Shown one piece after another: positions 1,641 through 12,322 of a stretch of DNA of 46,375 bases. A program made the translations under genes and the position numbers. The stretch comes from a virus (taxonomy: Duplodnaviria; Heunggongvirae; Uroviricota; Caudoviricetes): IMG/VR virus record IMGVR_UViG_2925891887_000007. One strand, given 5' to 3'. Under the pieces are notes generated by a model. The model saw only the letters and a program-made list of their open reading frames with translations, was not told where the DNA came from and made no database searches. How positions within the stretch are numbered: the stretch's first letter is position 1; each line of letters starts with the position of its first letter.

Positions 1641-4112
1641 TTAAGAATCAGCCTGACTCGGGATCAGTTTTTGCCAGATAACTGAAACGTATTTTGCCTG
1701 GTAACGGGCGTCATCAAGTGCATTATGGCGCTCACCTTCGAATGGAATAGCCGTTCTGGCATCGAAGTCTATGGCTTTCCCCAGCTCAACGATTGTGCGT
1801 ACATCGCGATCGTTGTAGTAACGCCACGGGCAGGGGATCCCCTGCCGTTCGTATGAACGGCGCAAAATCGTGTTGTCGAAGTTGGCTCCATTTCCCCAAA
1901 CCTGAACAAAAAATTCACCGGAGTTTTCGTCGATAAATTCTCGCAATTGTAACAGTGCATCATCTAACGGGATTTCATCGGTCATAATGGCAGATTGCGC
2001 TTCGCGTGATTGCTTAAGCCACCATTTAATGGTGTCCCGATCAATGACTCCGCCAGCAGTTTCCAGATCGATAGTCTTACTAAATTCCGGTCCCATATCT
2101 CCGGTTTGCGGATCGAAAAATATTGCACCTATTGAGATGATCGGGGCATCAGGATTTTTTCCCATGGTTTCAAGGTCGATCATTAGATGGTCACACGTCC
2201 TGCTGGTGGATGTGATTCCGTGATGACCGTTCACCTTAATTGGGTGATCTGCCGTCTCGCCAGTTTCATTATCGCTATTGTGATGCTGATTGCCGCCAGT
2301 GTTCTCCTTGTGTGGATGTTCAGCGCCTTCCATTTCCTCCGGATCATCTTCCTGAACTTCAACCTGATACTCTTCATCGAATGTTTCTTGGTATGTTGCG
2401 TCGCCCATCACCGCGCCACAATCAGGGCAGTTGCCGCCGCCGGTCTGACCGCAGGCGGTGCAGACTTTTTCCACTTCCTGTTGCGCTACTGGTTCAGGCT
2501 GTTTCGTTTCTGGCTCGTTTTGTAACGCATTTGGACTGTTTTGTTCCGCTTTTTGGTAGTTCCGTTCCGATTCATGCTGGTTCTGGTTCACAGAATCGCG
2601 GGTCTGGAGCCCCTTAACCCATTTCGGATCATTCGGGTCACTAATCCCTTCAACAAATTCACCACGTGATGCAGCAAGCAACTTATCGGCGTCAGGCTGG
2701 CTGATATTGGCTGCCTGCATAATTTTGTTTACTTCGTCAGCGGTAACTTTTATCGGCTCTGGTTGTTCTGAATCTTCAGCGGTATCTACATTTTGCGGTA
2801 AGCCCGTGTATGTGCCATTTTTTCGGGCAAAATATTCTTCTTTTGTGATTTCAGTGGCGCCAGCAGCCAGTGCCTTATCCAGACCAGAGAGTTTGTTTGC
2901 GCGACCGTATTTTTCTCCGTCCTTATCTGCGAAGAGGAAATAGAACGGCCCCTCACGCTCTACAGATGGTTCAGCTTCCGGCGCGGTTTCATTTTTTGGG
3001 ATATCAGATACCTCAGTTTCCACTGCATCAGTTTGTGTTTCTGATGACTGGAGAACATCAACAGTGCCCAGGTCTGTTTCTTCATTCTCAAACACGCCCT
3101 TTGTCGTCAGGTATTCGCAGATATATTTGTTCAGTGCTACGGGATCTTTGTGAATGTCGATCGGACGCTCACGGACAAGGCCAAAAATAGTTTGGCGGTC
3201 GTAGCGAAGGGCATCAGGCTGTTTGCGCATTGATGCCGAGATACGCTTCCAGTCTTCGCGGTCGTTGTCGATAACTTCTTTTTTTGCCCAGCGATGGATG
3301 CTGCCGTCAATGTTTCCGGCATCCACATCACCAGGCCAGAGAGCGTAGGCCAGTTCGTCATCCAGTGTTTTCCATGTCTGCTTGTATTCGCGATGAATGG
3401 CAGCAATGACCGGGCTGATTTTTCCTGTTGAATTTTCAGTGTACTGTTGATTGGCTCTGGCGCGGGCGAGATCAACAACAGACGTGTATTTTCCGGTTTC
3501 CTTGCGTTCACCTTCGCGACGTTTTTTCCAGATGCGCATCTCTGCCTGAATTTCGGGCCATTTAGCACCAGGAATACATTTATGCTTAACCCACCCAATG
3601 GCGTGCAACTTAAGCTCCGGATACATGGCGTTAACTTCTGGCATTTTCATCAACGCTTCAACGATATGTCCGTCGAATGTTGCCATGTCTTCCTGCAACA
3701 ATTCCTGTGCGCTAATAACCATATCAACGGTGATGTTTTCACATGTGTCGAACTTAACCATGACAGCGTTCTGTACTTCAGGGGCCAGCTTGTCAAAAGT
3801 GACGTTCATCGGATCGGATTCAGTCTCAACCGGGACAAAAGAAGCAGACTCCTCATCCCAGCGGTTTTCCTGCATATATTCAGCATCCCATGAATCGAGG
3901 GCAGGGCGGGGTATGCCAGGTTTATCCTCGCAGACAATAAATTTATAAGCGCAGTCCTGAGCAGCCGGATAATGTTCCAGGAATTGCCAGTGAAATTTTG
4001 CTCGAGCACGGCGTTCGTCGCCAGCTTCAATGGCTGTGGCTACAGCCACAGCGCCTTCTTCCCTTGTTGCCAGTTCGTCAGGAATAGCGGCGCAAATAAA
4101 GACTTTACTCAT
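1641..4112 (-). CDS. Large early protein with C-terminal DEDDh (DnaQ-like) 3'-5' exonuclease domain and a central CxxC-x-CxxC zinc ribbon
   Basis: C-terminus has DLETMG...WGNGANFD...HNALDDA exonuclease motifs; start chosen at MSKVF (GAGGT RBS), since the table start at 4148 is a TTG. Confidence 0.75.
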   Translation of the reverse strand: MSKVFICAAIPDELATREEGAVAVATAIEAGDERRARAKFHWQFLEHYPAAQDCAYKFIVCEDKPGIPRPALDSWDAEYMQENRWDEESASFVPVETESDPMNVTFDKLAPEVQNAVMVKFDTCENITVDMVISAQELLQEDMATFDGHIVEALMKMPEVNAMYPELKLHAIGWVKHKCIPGAKWPEIQAEMRIWKKRREGERKETGKYTSVVDLARARANQQYTENSTGKISPVIAAIHREYKQTWKTLDDELAYALWPGDVDAGNIDGSIHRWAKKEVIDNDREDWKRISASMRKQPDALRYDRQTIFGLVRERPIDIHKDPVALNKYICEYLTTKGVFENEETDLGTVDVLQSSETQTDAVETEVSDIPKNETAPEAEPSVEREGPFYFLFADKDGEKYGRANKLSGLDKALAAGATEITKEEYFARKNGTYTGLPQNVDTAEDSEQPEPIKVTADEVNKIMQAANISQPDADKLLAASRGEFVEGISDPNDPKWVKGLQTRDSVNQNQHESERNYQKAEQNSPNALQNEPETKQPEPVAQQEVEKVCTACGQTGGGNCPDCGAVMGDATYQETFDEEYQVEVQEDDPEEMEGAEHPHKENTGGNQHHNSDNETGETADHPIKVNGHHGITSTSRTCDHLMIDLETMGKNPDAPIISIGAIFFDPQTGDMGPEFSKTIDLETAGGVIDRDTIKWWLKQSREAQSAIMTDEIPLDDALLQLREFIDENSGEFFVQVWGNGANFDNTILRRSYERQGIPCPWRYYNDRDVRTIVELGKAIDFDARTAIPFEGERHNALDDARYQAKYVSVIWQKLIPSQADS

Positions 4113-8078: not shown

Positions 8079-8501
8079 GTGGCAAAAGTTTTTACACAAG
8101 AAGAGCGGGAAAAAATTAAAGGGCAGGTGGTGGAACTCGTGCGCCAGAGCGGTCGTGAGACGTTACGGCAACTGGAAGTCAAGACAGGTGCGACAAGATA
8201 TCTGATGAGCGTTCTCGCAAGAGAGCTGGTTGCCAGCGGCGATGTATACAACTCTGGTTACGGGTTATTCCCGTCTGAACAGGCGCGTAAGGACTGGCAA
8301 AATGCCCGTAAAAAGCTCTCAAGGGCAAAGCTGAAGGAACCATCTGCGGTTGATCCGGACCTTATCTGGTCATTACCTGACGGAGAAATACGTCGCTACG
8401 ACAGGCGTCAGAACATAATCTGTCGCGAGTGCCGGAAGAGTGAAGTTATGCAGCGCATACTAGCATTCTATCAGGGAAATGCTCGATATTTATTGAAGTG
8501 A
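8079..8501 (+). CDS. Hypothetical protein with possible HTH
   Basis: 140-aa ORF, GTG start with AAGGGGG RBS. Confidence 0.5.
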   Translation: MAKVFTQEEREKIKGQVVELVRQSGRETLRQLEVKTGATRYLMSVLARELVASGDVYNSGYGLFPSEQARKDWQNARKKLSRAKLKEPSAVDPDLIWSLPDGEIRRYDRRQNIICRECRKSEVMQRILAFYQGNARYLLK

Positions 8502-8753: not shown

Positions 8754-9653
8754 ATGATTGATCCACTTATTAGAAACTTACAGAGTGATATTGCACTACT
8801 CCAGCTTTATATCGCGCAACGCAAACAGGCAGGCTTTCATGACATGGAAAGAATAATTGAGTCATTGACCATCTTTATGTTTCGCGCGCTGAAAATGGGT
8901 GAACTGGTAAACATGAATCAGATTAAAGTTAATTTTCCCGCCATTGATTTAGCTGATAATAAAAACATGATAGCAGTTCAAGTTACTACGAATGCAAGTC
9001 CAGCAAAAATTAAAAAAACTATCGAATCTTTTGAGGAAGCAAATGAAATAGGAGAGAGTCTGAAAGATAAATACTCTACTTTATATATTTTTGGTTTTTG
9101 TAAAGCCTCAAGATACCTAACTCCAAGTTATTGTAAAATAATCGACCCCAGCTATTTCGTGAATGAACTTTGCGATAAAGCAGATGAAGATATGGTCCAG
9201 GATATGATTGACGCCATTCGACGCCATCATGATTATACATCATTACATCCATGGAGTGATAAAGATTCACTCGAAATTATACTCAATATTATTAATCGCA
9301 ATGCAATAAAACATCGGATGAGTTGCGAAGGCAGTCTGTCTGATATGCTCACTGGTTTAAAAGAAATTAATGAAGTAATTACAAAAGGAACAATTCAACG
9401 TAAGCAACGTTCAAAATCGATATCTGACTTCAAAGATCAAAGCATGGTGAAATTTATGAGAGGTGTAATGGATGATTTGTCTGTTATTCAAGCCATAGTG
9501 AACAAATCTAAAGTTAACCAAGGTGATATGGTTTATATAAGCCATGAAGATATGATTAATATTGATAAATTAAAAGCTAAAATAGCAAGTGATTCATCAG
9601 AGATTGCAAGGCTAAATAATATTGATATAACACTAAATGTTGTTGATTTATAA
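8754..9653 (+). CDS. Hypothetical 299-aa protein in low-GC cargo island
   Basis: Long ORF in markedly AT-rich DNA; no catalytic motif recognised by eye. Confidence 0.7.
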   Translation: MIDPLIRNLQSDIALLQLYIAQRKQAGFHDMERIIESLTIFMFRALKMGELVNMNQIKVNFPAIDLADNKNMIAVQVTTNASPAKIKKTIESFEEANEIGESLKDKYSTLYIFGFCKASRYLTPSYCKIIDPSYFVNELCDKADEDMVQDMIDAIRRHHDYTSLHPWSDKDSLEIILNIINRNAIKHRMSCEGSLSDMLTGLKEINEVITKGTIQRKQRSKSISDFKDQSMVKFMRGVMDDLSVIQAIVNKSKVNQGDMVYISHEDMINIDKLKAKIASDSSEIARLNNIDITLNVVDL

Positions 9654-9967
9654 TTGTCGATTTAGCAAAACAGAGAATGCTTTGAAAGTTTCACCGAGAA
9701 ATATTTATTGTGAACCTCCTTATTGTTTATCGACTTTTACTCTCCGCTCATTGCAGTACTGTCGGAGAAGGCTACTATGTACAAGAAGCAGCTAACATAA
9801 GCGAGCATCACTATTGATATTAGGAAGAGTATATAAAAACTTCATGCTGAACCTTACAAAAGTAGGTAAACCGGCAATGGCCTAAGTGGCAGGGTCATGT
9901 TGATCCGGCACTGCCGAGCTAATAATTAACAAGCAAATCACTCTTTCTAATAATTTGTTGAAATAAA

Positions 9968-10627
9968 CTAAATATGTATATGTTTACCAACAACCACATA
10001 TGAACTACCTGCTTTGCTCCATGATTTTATTATTTCTAAATTATTATCTGAGCATATTTTACTTACAGTATCCACATCTAATAAACCATAGTAGAAAGCA
10101 TTACGAGAGTTTTGGTATATATACCCATGCAAATGTTTAATACCGCTCTCGTACCTCTTGAAATAAGAACTTTTGTATTGATTGACAATCAGTGCTTCAC
10201 CATCACTCTTTAATAATTCTCTAATCGCACTGAGGACTTTGTGAATTGTGGATTCACATGGAATTGCGGAAAGCACGTTTGCGCAAAGTATGAAATCATA
10301 ATGATTTGTTATTTTATCTATATTTTCATAAGAAACAATATTAGCATTCTTATAGTTATTTATCACGTAATCTGGAATCGTGGTTTGTACACCTCTGATA
10401 ATTTGCACTCTTTCTAGTTGTCTTCTGGAATCTAAAAATGTCACAGTTTCAAATTTATTTACTAATTGTTCTGAATATCTAAGTTTTCCACATCCAAAAT
10501 CAAGGGCATTGTCATTTTTATTAGTGCTTTCAATCTGTTTACAGAGATAGTTAGATGGCATAGTGTGCGGTTTCGCTGCATTTTCTGAACGTATGTTTAT
10601 TCCATTTATTTTGTAATTCAAAATCAA
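9968..10627 (-). CDS. Small class I SAM-dependent methyltransferase-like protein
   Basis: LDFGCGKL (motif I), acidic residue after beta2 (VTFLDS), DFILCANVL, LLKSDGEALIV; very AT-rich; 7 nt downstream of the membrane protein gene. Confidence 0.65.
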   Translation of the reverse strand: MILNYKINGINIRSENAAKPHTMPSNYLCKQIESTNKNDNALDFGCGKLRYSEQLVNKFETVTFLDSRRQLERVQIIRGVQTTIPDYVINNYKNANIVSYENIDKITNHYDFILCANVLSAIPCESTIHKVLSAIRELLKSDGEALIVNQYKSSYFKRYESGIKHLHGYIYQNSRNAFYYGLLDVDTVSKICSDNNLEIIKSWSKAGSSYVVVGKHIHI

Positions 10628-10633
10628 CCTCGT

Positions 10634-11341
10634 TTAAAAAATATTGTTATTGTTAAAGAATTCTTTTATTTTGCTATCAGGTATTTGTCTTACTTGGCTT
10701 TCTGTTCTTGGTTTAACTGATGCTATGAAAATAAGGAAGTCAAATGCGACAAGAGAAATAATCCACAACCAAAGATTAATTAAAGAGCCAGTAACAGAGA
10801 ATATATTTGTTAATTTGGCGATACTTATTATTAAAATAGTAACAAATGCGATTACTGTATGTTCAAAGAAAACCCAAAAGTAATAAACTTTGTTCCAGAA
10901 AAGTTCAACGTAATGTTTGTCTTTTAACTCTTTAACTTCTGGGTAATACAGTTTACTCATTACCTTGTGAGATTCATCAGTAGTTAATTTTCTCGTAACG
11001 CCTGCAATTTTTGCTAATGGTTTAATAATTAAATGACTATCCCACATCTTCCTTATTCCAATAATTTTTGCTACATTATTATGTAGATCTAAAGCTCCAC
11101 TAATTACTGACCAAAAAACTGAAGATGCAATTGGTAATATGCCAAAGGTTAATATCCATTTAATAAATTCCTCGTAGTCTTTAACGGGGGGGATATACTT
11201 GGCATTAATGCCAACCAATGGCATGTAGCCATAAATGACTAATGATAGGTAAAATATAAATGTAGTAATAAAAGTCGCCTTATGGAGCATAGGCAACATT
11301 TCATTATAACTCTTTGGTGGTTCTAACATTTTACTCTCCAA
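10634..11341 (-). CDS. Integral membrane protein (about 4 TM helices)
   Basis: 235 aa with four long hydrophobic segments; first gene of a two-gene minus-strand operon in the low-GC island. Confidence 0.65.
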   Translation of the reverse strand: MESKMLEPPKSYNEMLPMLHKATFITTFIFYLSLVIYGYMPLVGINAKYIPPVKDYEEFIKWILTFGILPIASSVFWSVISGALDLHNNVAKIIGIRKMWDSHLIIKPLAKIAGVTRKLTTDESHKVMSKLYYPEVKELKDKHYVELFWNKVYYFWVFFEHTVIAFVTILIISIAKLTNIFSVTGSLINLWLWIISLVAFDFLIFIASVKPRTESQVRQIPDSKIKEFFNNNNIF

Positions 11342-12071
11342 ACATTCAAAAAAAAGCTAATCTTCTATAATAACGAAATTCAGCTGGCACAATTAAAGAT
11401 TAATTGCCACCAATTTCTTGATTTTATAATTTTATCTAAATGTTTTTGATTAATCTAGTCCTAAAAGAAACCTACTGCATAAATATTTATGCTGATGACC
11501 CACTCCCTGTTCGTTAACACATAGCAACGTTAGTAATGCATCCTAAGTGATCAATATTTTTGCTAGCTTCATCTGCTCGCTCAAAGGGAACTATAATGTT
11601 GGCTTGCGTGTGACTTGGCATGTTTAAAGAAGTGCTGGTGGTGACTGGTTGCTGTTTTCCATTTCCACAGAACAAAATCATAGAAACTATACCCAGTAGT
11701 TGTATTGAATCACTGACGAGACAGCCTCATATTTATCAGGACTGGTGTACGTCCAATACAGGAGGTTGTGGTGCTGGTTCTCAAATGTGCGCTGGCTATT
11801 GCTGCTGTAATGGCAATTTATTGTCTTGCTGTTGTTCTTATGGATCACCTTTCTGATTGATTTCATATTGGCGAGGTAACGGTAGTTAAGTAGAATTGCT
11901 GCGGGTGCTTGAGGCTATCTGCCTCGGGCATCAACACCAAAGGCAGATAGAGAAAAGCCCCAGTTAACATTACGCGTCCGGCAAGACGCTTAACATTAAT
12001 CTGAGGCCATATCTATGCTCTACACACGTAGGTTAGCCTCTTACGTGCCGAAAGGCAAGGAGAAGCAGGCT

Positions 12072-12227
12072 ATGAAGCAGCAAAAGGCGATGCTAATCGC
12101 CCTGATCGTCATCTGTTTAACCGTCATAGTGACGGCACTGGTAACGAGGAAAGACCTCTGCGAGGTACGAATCCGAACCGGTCAGACGGAGGTCGCTGTC
12201 TTCACAGCTTACGAACCTGAGGAGTAA
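12072..12227 (+). CDS. hokD: Hok family type I toxin
   Basis: MKQQKAMLIALIVICLTVIVTALVTRKDLCEVRIRTGQTEVAVFTAYEPEE; AAGGAGAAG RBS; in-frame upstream extension resembles a mok-like leader. Confidence 0.9.
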   Translation: MKQQKAMLIALIVICLTVIVTALVTRKDLCEVRIRTGQTEVAVFTAYEPEE

Positions 12228-12295
12228 GAGACCCGGCGAGGGAGAAATCCCTCGCCACCTCTGATGTGGCAGGCATCCTCAACGCACCCGCACTT

Positions 12296-12322
12296 AACCC
12301 GCTTCGGCGGGTTTTTGTTTTT
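12296..12322 (+). terminator. Rho-independent terminator after hok
   Basis: AACCCGCTTCGGCGGGTTTTTGTTTTT hairpin plus T-run. Confidence 0.6.

Follow-up and report, generated by a model that had tools for sequence, protein, structure and literature searches.

The type I toxins of Escherichia coli include TisB (29 aa), ZorO (29 aa), ShoB (26 aa), DinQ (27 aa), Ldr (35 aa) and Hok (about 50 aa). Small inner-membrane modulators are represented by KdpF (29 aa), PmrR (29 aa), MgtR (30 aa), MgtS (31 aa), CydX (37 aa) and AcrZ (49 aa). Lambdoid prophages also carry morons, i.e. autonomous promoter-gene-terminator units such as bor and lom of lambda or gp15 of HK97. Among the type I systems of such prophages, hokW/sokW and hokD loci have been described, including those of Sp5/933W (PMC8621323).

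The DNA analyzed here, a stretch of 46,375 nt referred to as the window, is a Rac-like lambdoid prophage of E. coli. Like the described hokW/sokW and hokD loci, it contains a full hok/mok/sok locus of that type, but this is preceded by a small open reading frame (ORF) that lies outside the hok mRNA and ends 8 nt ahead of the hok -35 hexamer. Comparison of related loci indicates that positions 11771-11860 are likely to form a genuine 29-codon gene, for the most part unannotated, that belongs to Rac-like lambdoid prophages of Escherichia and Shigella and whose product would be a small accessory membrane protein. The following features were distinguished in this region:

11620-11856, plus strand: cysteine-rich 78-aa frame, open in the window
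11687-11866, minus strand: 59-aa frame, open in the window and called in the annotation of phage HannyBb
11705-11710, plus strand: putative -35 hexamer TTGAAT, in register and ungapped across upstream types A-D
11728-11733, plus strand: putative -10 hexamer CATATT, 17 nt past the -35 hexamer, unchanged in representatives of upstream types A-E
11740-11770, plus strand: predicted leader of about 30 nt, its start near 11740 being deduced from the -10 hexamer
11760-11765, plus strand: Shine-Dalgarno sequence (SD) AGGAGG, 5 nt ahead of the GTG codon
11771-11860, plus strand: candidate 29-codon gene with a GTG start and a TGA stop (11858-11860), product MLVLKCALAIAAVMAIYCLAVVLMDHLSD
11868-11896, plus strand: hok promoter TTGGCG-17 nt-TAGAAT (9/12 in the promoter scan)
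11903-12313, plus strand: hok/mok mRNA, with mok at 12015-12227 and hok at 12072-12227
12296-12313, plus strand: terminator-like hairpin of the hok unit

The 511 bases surrounding the frame are 100% identical to many chromosomes, e.g. that of strain 55989. The gene order annotated by RefSeq in 55989 is as follows: (i) a ydaU-like gene; (ii) a DUF977 (ydaW-like) gene; (iii) a cargo island encoding a SMEK-domain protein and, on the minus strand, a methyltransferase and a membrane protein; (iv) an empty stretch; (v) hokD, at the place equivalent to the hok gene of the window; and (vi) rem, a hypothetical gene, DUF968, rusA and Q. The 29-codon frame sits inside the empty stretch and lies at the right-hand end of a variable cargo slot that separates the DUF977 gene from the hok/sok-rem-DUF968-rusA-Q block. 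Its orientation is the same as that of DUF977 and Q. Downstream, the Rfam sok/hok leader (RF01794) matches positions 11903-12077 with 114 bits, and the sokW annotation of 933W covers the region homologous to 11884-11990; the frame is located upstream of, and outside, the hok transcript. Only 8 nt separate its stop codon from the hok promoter, no terminator-like site was found between the stop (11860) and this promoter (11868), and the sole nearby terminator call is a weak hairpin (11795-11814) placed inside the 29-codon frame.

A preliminary description of the region had reported an AGGAGG motif followed by a GTG codon opening a 29-aa frame upstream of hok, and all of these elements are present in the sequence, with the hok promoter beginning shortly past the stop codon. 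A second in-frame GTG (11768) directly adjoins the GTG at 11771, and the ORF lister starts there, giving a product of 30 aa. Among the related copies the codon at 11768 is variable (GTC, TAT, ATT, ATC, GTT or ATG), whereas GTG 11771 is invariant, being replaced only in the L206 type, by ATG; the original assignment of start (11771) and length (29 aa) is therefore correct. The product has a GRAVY value of 1.86, and its best 19-residue segment (C6-M24, mean 2.70 on the Kyte-Doolittle scale) is predicted to form a single transmembrane helix, with K5 on the N-terminal side and an acidic tail, D-H/R-L-S-D. The reported architecture of one hydrophobic helix with a short acidic tail is thus recovered, and in size (<60 aa), hydrophobicity and its single predicted transmembrane helix the product matches the toxin component of type I systems. 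One face of the helix (A7/A11/A15) is Ala-rich. In the most divergent, L206 type (79.6% identity), which has an ATG start and an in-frame 3-nt deletion, the product is a 28-aa peptide, MLVLKCSLTIAVVRVIYCSVILMDRLSD, with an Arg residue in mid-helix.

Taken as a single sequence, the combination of SD, GTG and frame stays within chance expectation: the window contains 16 AGGAGG motifs vs. 14.8 expected, and AGGAGG-N5-GTG is found twice vs. 0.37 expected, a count that was reached by 6 of 100 shuffles. The case therefore rests on the comparison of related loci. Two scans of IMG/VR were performed with codon-aware patterns, and as these are biased within the pattern region, only positions outside the patterns were used in the tests. 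A third IMG/VR scan was anchored on the hok promoter, so that it was blind to the ORF, and comprised 144 hok loci. One further scan covered the species genomes of GTDB (185,579 species-representative genomes), and 5426 complete E. coli genomes were searched with BLAST; the most divergent copies were retrieved separately. Among them, the L205 type was found by BLAST at 83.8% nucleotide identity (differing at 16% of bases), the reading frame not being used. Divergence among the copies is mostly ≤8%, and the substitution tests rest on a few dozen changes.

The GTG codon and the 29-codon frame are intact in 147 of the 150 related prophage loci. Of the three exceptions, two are anchor hits belonging to a single lineage that has a 2-nt deletion; the third is a copy in which the stop codon is changed to Cys, adding 2 aa. 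All 104 full-length copies of the hok-promoter-anchored sample are intact. Between the window and the L205 type, the peptide frame has 9.5 synonymous and 5.5 non-synonymous changes (pS 0.43, pN 0.089, pN/pS 0.21; Fisher P = 0.001), whereas the pN/pS values of the other two plus-strand frames are 0.76 and 1.07, the latter being that of the 78-aa frame; of the two overlapping frames, only that of the peptide shows a synonymous excess. A site-count ratio resembling dN/dS is 0.35 for the peptide frame (P = 0.002) vs. 1.13 for the 78-aa frame and 0.83 for the 59-aa minus-strand frame, and 27 of the 28 pairwise ratios between lineages are below 0.7. In the unbiased (promoter-anchored) sample the ratio is 0.47 (P = 0.04), with 8, 6 and 14 changes at the first, second and third codon positions, and the variable sites outside the retrieval patterns are also mostly third positions.

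All 16 replacements are conservative (A/T/V, V/I/L, M/V/I/T, D/E/N, R/H, L/F, S/T and C/Y), with a mean BLOSUM62 score of +0.44 vs. -0.36 in a transition/transversion-matched randomization (P = 0.03), and the helix gains no charge through any of them. The antisense frame that shares its third positions with the peptide frame, and is closed by stops, scores 0.40-0.43; such a near-equal value is expected, yet it marks the limited resolution of the test. Nucleotide diversity is 0.057 in the ORF vs. 0.065-0.071 in the hok promoter and leader, and since it is thus not below that of the neighbouring hok regulatory DNA, the level of conservation alone is not evidence and was dropped as an argument. 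Through the pattern of its changes, the comparison nevertheless shows the frame, its start codon and its SD to be maintained by purifying selection, and the 29-codon frame is likely a real, translated gene. The possibility, raised in the preliminary description, that neither overlapping frame is under purifying selection is not borne out.

At least five sequence types, which differ at about half (about 50%) of positions, can be told apart among the loci upstream of the SD. In an ungapped alignment of these types anchored on the GTG codon, the putative -35 hexamer (TTGAAT, TTGAAG or TTGCTG) stays in register, as does the putative -10 hexamer, which shows zero diversity within type A, is TATATT in the L206 type and is TGTATT only in the L076/L113 lineage. 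The 17-nt spacer between them varies in sequence and is constant in length, and the distance from the -10 hexamer to the start codon is constant and indel-free in types A-E. The pair matches the consensus at 8 of 12 positions, which is a weak match, and lies 38-66 nt upstream of the frame. Hexamers kept in register across otherwise unalignable types are the pattern expected of a selected sigma-70 promoter, and on balance we consider the putative promoter to be real, with moderate confidence. It is absent, through replacement or recombination, from some intact copies, namely the L028 subtype, the E. albertii type L156 and BL21; in the last of these a truncated DUF977 gene abuts the SD. The SD is purine-rich in nearly all intact copies (AGGAGG, AGGAGA, GGGAGG or AGGGGG), and it reads AGAAGA in L209, which belongs to the L205 type. 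In the L076/L113 lineage the -35 hexamer is changed, the -10 hexamer is TGTATT, the SD is AGAAAG and the ORF carries the 2-nt deletion, all together; such joint decay is the expectation if these features serve one gene that died.

The boundaries of this unit are visible in loci that have recombined. In 13 of about 150 loci the unit is present and hok is absent; here homology stops about 10 nt past the stop codon, and beyond this point come a DUF1971 gene on the minus strand and a nin region that differs. Of the 144 hok loci sharing this hok promoter, 104 carry the small gene and 40 lack it. In the latter, the upstream module is replaced, the break is inside the ORF and its last 21-45 nt remain, with the hok loci of O157/Stx phages keeping only a 21-nt 3' remnant. 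The distance between the ORF and hok is fixed in most loci, and the two are co-linear in roughly 90% of the ORF-carrying loci. The unit from putative promoter to stop codon behaves as a single block in recombination and is able to occur in the absence of hok. That each element is found without the other argues against an obligatory coupling of the small gene to hok.

In searches against Pfam and NCBIfam (both E ≤ 10) and PADLOC (E ≤ 0.01), the peptide had no match, including to Hok/Gef (PF01848), and its sole PHROG match had an E value of 0.73. An exhaustive phmmer search against 1.84 billion representatives retrieved no relatives below 83% identity, and most of those retrieved had artefactual N-terminal extensions; one further match, a 253-aa protein, was spurious. 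The Rfam search of the region returned the hok/sok leader only, and sub-threshold matches (an isrK-like one at the hok terminator and others) were regarded as chance. The fold of positions 11740-11902 is not beyond that of shuffles (z = -0.46), the SD is at most weakly paired in a 3-5 bp hairpin that is not conserved in other types, so that neither the SD nor the start codon appears sequestered by an mRNA fold, and the conserved block 11573-11770 also folds no better than shuffles. An antisense promoter opposite the peptide had been suggested as something to look for, and none was found: the minus strand of 11740-11960 contains no promoter-like site of at least 8/12 in a consensus scan, a method of low sensitivity. 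We found no direct repeat able to yield a divergent complementary sRNA, no convincing inverted repeat, and no duplex beyond shuffles with minus-strand RNA of either flank in six upstream types (z from -2.4 to +0.4). These searches covered the ORF and its flanks, and a trans-acting RNA encoded at a distance is conceivable. A complementarity of 11 nt between 11719-11729 and the 5' end of hok falls in the promoter spacer and was treated as chance. Identity with the Pas prophage sRNAs of EPEC was also rejected, as these adjoin esterase and holin genes, elsewhere.

Several other readings of the locus were weighed against a translated gene with a product of its own. The preliminary description had noted a cysteine-rich 78-aa frame overlapping that of the peptide, which is indeed present (11620-11856), and had supposed that only one of the two is real. 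It is extremely unlikely that the real gene is this frame or the 59-aa frame of the minus strand. Both are open in the window, and hypothetical proteins have been deposited for both: the 78-aa product, within a 62-member cluster, occurs on 392 contigs, and the minus-strand product is found in phage HannyBb and a few other records. Across the 150 loci, however, the length of the 78-aa frame lies anywhere between 23 and 154 codons and its start codon changes (ATG, GTG or TTG), its ATG is lost in Tritos, its N-terminal two-thirds are missing from upstream types B-E, and its ratios are 1.13, 1.00 and 1.07. The minus-strand frame varies from 1 to 78 codons, with ATA replacing its start in about 50 loci and ratios of 0.73-0.83, and neither frame has a family match in Pfam, NCBIfam or PHROGs. 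These comparisons show that the two longer frames are not maintained by purifying selection, and the supposition of a single real frame is upheld in favour of the 29-aa one, intact in nearly all loci. It is unlikely, although less so, that the 29-codon frame is untranslated and the stretch is upstream regulatory DNA or RNA of hok, such as an UP-like element or a part of a longer, 5'-extended hok transcript. Such a role would agree with an ORF diversity equal to that of the hok promoter and leader, with the retention of at least the last 21-45 nt of the ORF at every hok locus having this promoter, even where all of the DNA further upstream is replaced (which suggests that the 3' end of the ORF matters for hok), with the lack of a terminator between the ORF and the hok promoter, and with the absence of a RefSeq gene call. 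It does not account for a synonymous-biased divergence specific to one frame, the conservative replacements, an in-frame deletion combined with exchange of the GTG start for ATG, the conserved SD, the persistence of the whole unit without hok with a break just past the stop, or the decay of promoter, SD and frame jointly in one lineage. Some of these points also bear on the idea of a leader peptide or upstream ORF, whose translation would only regulate a downstream gene (e.g. by preventing Rho termination or altering read-through into hok) and whose peptide would be functionless. A short ORF placed directly upstream of another gene, with no terminator between and at a fixed distance from hok in most loci, could be of this kind, but the amino-acid sequence is conserved and not merely the open frame, hok has its own promoter 8 nt past the stop, and the hok-less variant has the opposite-strand DUF1971 gene next to it and so nothing downstream to regulate; we regard this idea as very improbable.

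The preliminary description had likened the peptide to type I toxins, and this held for size and the hydrophobic helix; on the RNA side, no antisense promoter, complementary RNA or SD-sequestering fold was found. If it were the toxin of an unrecognized type I pair in tandem with hok/sok, it would depolarize or permeabilize the inner membrane and be repressed by an antisense or trans-acting RNA. With its 29 aa, single hydrophobic helix, short polar end and GRAVY of 1.86 it is of the same size and build as TisB, ZorO, ShoB and DinQ; it is encoded on mobile DNA, with a GTG start in nearly all copies, and it adjoins a bona fide type I toxin locus, hok/sok, at a fixed distance in most loci. The small gene differs from the type I toxin genes in that the searches detected no gene for an antisense or complementary RNA: promoter-like sites of 8/12 or better were absent from the minus strand of 11740-11960, no direct repeat could supply a complementary sRNA, and duplexes with either flank did not surpass shuffles in the six types. 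It also lacks a long structured 5' UTR and a sequestered SD (mRNA z -0.46, the SD being at most weakly paired), and its product has no sequence similarity to Hok/Gef or any toxin family. Nor is a linked antitoxin gene conserved upstream, since the flanks on that side differ wholly among types retaining the ORF. The likeness is one of resemblance only, type I toxin status is not supported, and we judge it to be improbable. A related proposal joins the small gene and hok in one tandem functional module, in which the peptide, or its transcription or translation, would tune killing by Hok. Transcription from the promoter of the small gene would read across the hok promoter and give a bicistronic, 5'-extended hok mRNA and a second membrane peptide; the effect might be exerted through an altered 5'-3' fold-back that keeps the hok mRNA inert, through occlusion of the hok promoter or through pairing with Hok in the membrane. 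The fixed-distance co-linearity in roughly 90% of loci fits this proposal, while the occurrence of either element alone argues against an obligatory coupling. If true, the proposal would add a new regulatory level to a textbook type I system; we consider it quite unlikely.

The SD and ORF, at no less than 80% coverage, are present in 1895 of the 5426 complete E. coli genomes (about 35%). Carriers include BL21 and NEBExpress, both laboratory B strains, the enteroaggregative strains 55989 and 042, APEC O1 and, by GenBank annotation, REL606. Among the 185,579 species-representative genomes, the ORF was found in E. albertii, E. ruysiae and Shigella flexneri, as well as on short contigs of four unrelated gut metagenome-assembled genomes, which are near-identical to the E. 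coli sequence and probably mis-binned; four remaining stretches, from three unrelated genomes, are chance matches without the ORF. The gene is thus essentially confined to Escherichia and Shigella. Of the 84 matching records of deposited phages, only four (Tritos, Evi, mEp460_ev081 and HannyBb) contain the ORF. According to the annotation table of K-12, the Rac prophage of this strain is deleted after ydaW and the hok region is absent, so that ribosome-profiling studies in K-12 probably could not have seen the gene. In the records listed, RefSeq annotates nothing under the ORF, except for a fused DUF977 CDS in B strains. In GenBank, the same peptide sequence or an allele of it is labelled "membrane protein" (APK03751.1), and for E. 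coli B REL606 and BL21(DE3) the label is "conserved hypothetical protein" (ACT39199.1 and ACT43394.1). The 78-aa frame has been deposited far more often than the 29-aa one, at lengths of 47-98 aa, and annotation pipelines that call something here have usually picked the wrong, longer frame. A literature search on the peptide sequence and on hok, small-protein and prophage topics found no mention of the peptide.

For the preferred reading, a translated gene for a small membrane protein, the following course of expression may be proposed. In lysogens, transcription would start from its own weak, probably constitutive sigma-70 promoter; during lytic growth, read-through from the early-right operon would be expected, because the gene is oriented like DUF977 and Q. 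With no terminator ahead of the hok promoter, the transcript probably continues into hok/mok and ends at the hok terminator. Translation would proceed from the exposed, strong SD and the GTG start, and the product would cross the inner membrane once, its helix leaving the N-terminus and K5 in the cytoplasm and the acidic tail (D-H/R-L-S-D) in the periplasm; it may act by helix-helix contact within the membrane through the A7/A11/A15 face. A strong open SD, a probably constitutive promoter and occurrence in a third of E. coli strains make a tolerated small membrane protein more likely than a toxin. We see about an even chance that the product is a benign modulator rather than a toxin, and by analogy it would most likely work like small proteins of the KdpF, PmrR and MgtR kind.

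The product resembles the small modulators in having fewer than 50 aa, a single transmembrane helix and a small-residue (Ala) face suited to helix packing, and the gene resembles theirs in its ordinary, exposed SD and in being of a kind typically overlooked by annotation pipelines. Unlike these modulators, which are chromosomal and encoded next to, or co-regulated with, their partners, it is prophage-borne and its neighbours vary. With morons it shares a promoter-like element of its own, a place in the recombination hotspot between the replication and nin/Q genes, and a patchy distribution (104 of 144 hok loci, 4 of 84 phage records and 13 loci without hok), but it has no terminator of its own, and its G+C content and location resemble the conserved backbone flanking the cargo slot and not the cargo. 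Of the attributes of small membrane proteins (≤50 aa, single-pass), a selected frame and a conserved ribosome binding site and start codon were found. On these sequence grounds we classify the product as a probable new, uncharacterized small single-pass prophage membrane protein, and not as a new kind of system.

Approximately 35% of complete E. coli genomes therefore appear to carry a conserved peptide gene without RefSeq annotation, and as BL21 is already among the carriers, the gene is easy to approach experimentally. Its position, abutting the hok promoter without a terminator, raises the question of whether upstream transcription influences the expression of prophage hok/sok. Small prophage membrane peptides of this kind are a plausible source of lysogenic conversion, phage exclusion and membrane stress phenotypes.

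In the most common sequence type upstream of the Shine-Dalgarno sequence of the small gene (the 29-codon hydrophobic membrane-peptide frame), designated type A, a block of approximately 130 nt located upstream of the promoter (window 11573-11704) co-travels with this gene. The block and the small gene are found together behind differing cargos, e.g., in Tritos and in loci of the L112 type. The block was searched for a stable fold, a conserved ORF and a family match, and none of these was found. Some type A loci from IMG/VR (L028, L027, L031 and L046) have TCTCAT in place of the -35 sequence TTGAAT, in the segment equivalent to window 11703-11720, which generates a near-perfect palindrome (CTCATCAATGATGAG) across the promoter. 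This palindrome could be a protein-binding site or simply a hairpin.

A fusion junction is present in E. coli B strains, here BL21 (L004; 2204-2633) and NEBExpress (H160), where a shortened DUF977 gene is joined directly to the region beginning at approximately window 11748. The annotated CDS of the fused DUF977 gene stops within the small ORF, in a different frame, at the equivalent of position 11810. The small gene has lost its own promoter there, and its Shine-Dalgarno sequence and ORF are intact.

The hok loci of the O157/Stx-phage kind (L163 and 34 similar loci of IMG/VR) carry a different module upstream of the hok promoter. At this junction the final 21 nt of the small ORF are retained (equivalent to window 11840-11860), preceded by a new AAGGAG and ATG (AAGGAGTGATTTTATGGATCACCTTTCTGATTGA), resulting in a mini-ORF of 6 codons (MDHLSD). 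In other types (L181 and L201), 40-45 nt of the small ORF are retained. This 3' remnant may be important for the hok promoter.

The deposited annotation of one related phage contains calls on the opposite strand:

HannyBb (L002) 2454-2743, minus strand: two hypothetical genes, spanning the small gene and the hok promoter and leader

These frames are not conserved across the other loci, and the genes are probably spurious calls. An Rfam match to isrK (window 12236-12317), covering the 3' end of hok and the terminator, scored 25.7 bits, which is below the gathering score of 50, and most likely reflects mere terminator similarity. In the GTDB scan (L152-L157), nearly identical copies of this prophage segment of E. 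coli occur in MAGs assigned to Collinsella, Candidatus Scatousia and Haemophilus; the contigs that carry them are probably mis-binned E. coli or phage contigs.

The slot between DUF977 and the small gene is occupied in the window as follows:

8754-11341: cargo island, between DUF977 (8079-8501) and the small gene

The island encodes (i) a SMEK-domain protein, whose N-terminus matches a PADLOC Argonaute-associated REase model (E = 1e-20), (ii) a class I methyltransferase that weakly matches mad2, and (iii) a membrane protein of 231 aa. In other loci the slot is filled by different genes (1.2-7.4 kb), and it has the appearance of a hotspot for defence genes or morons.
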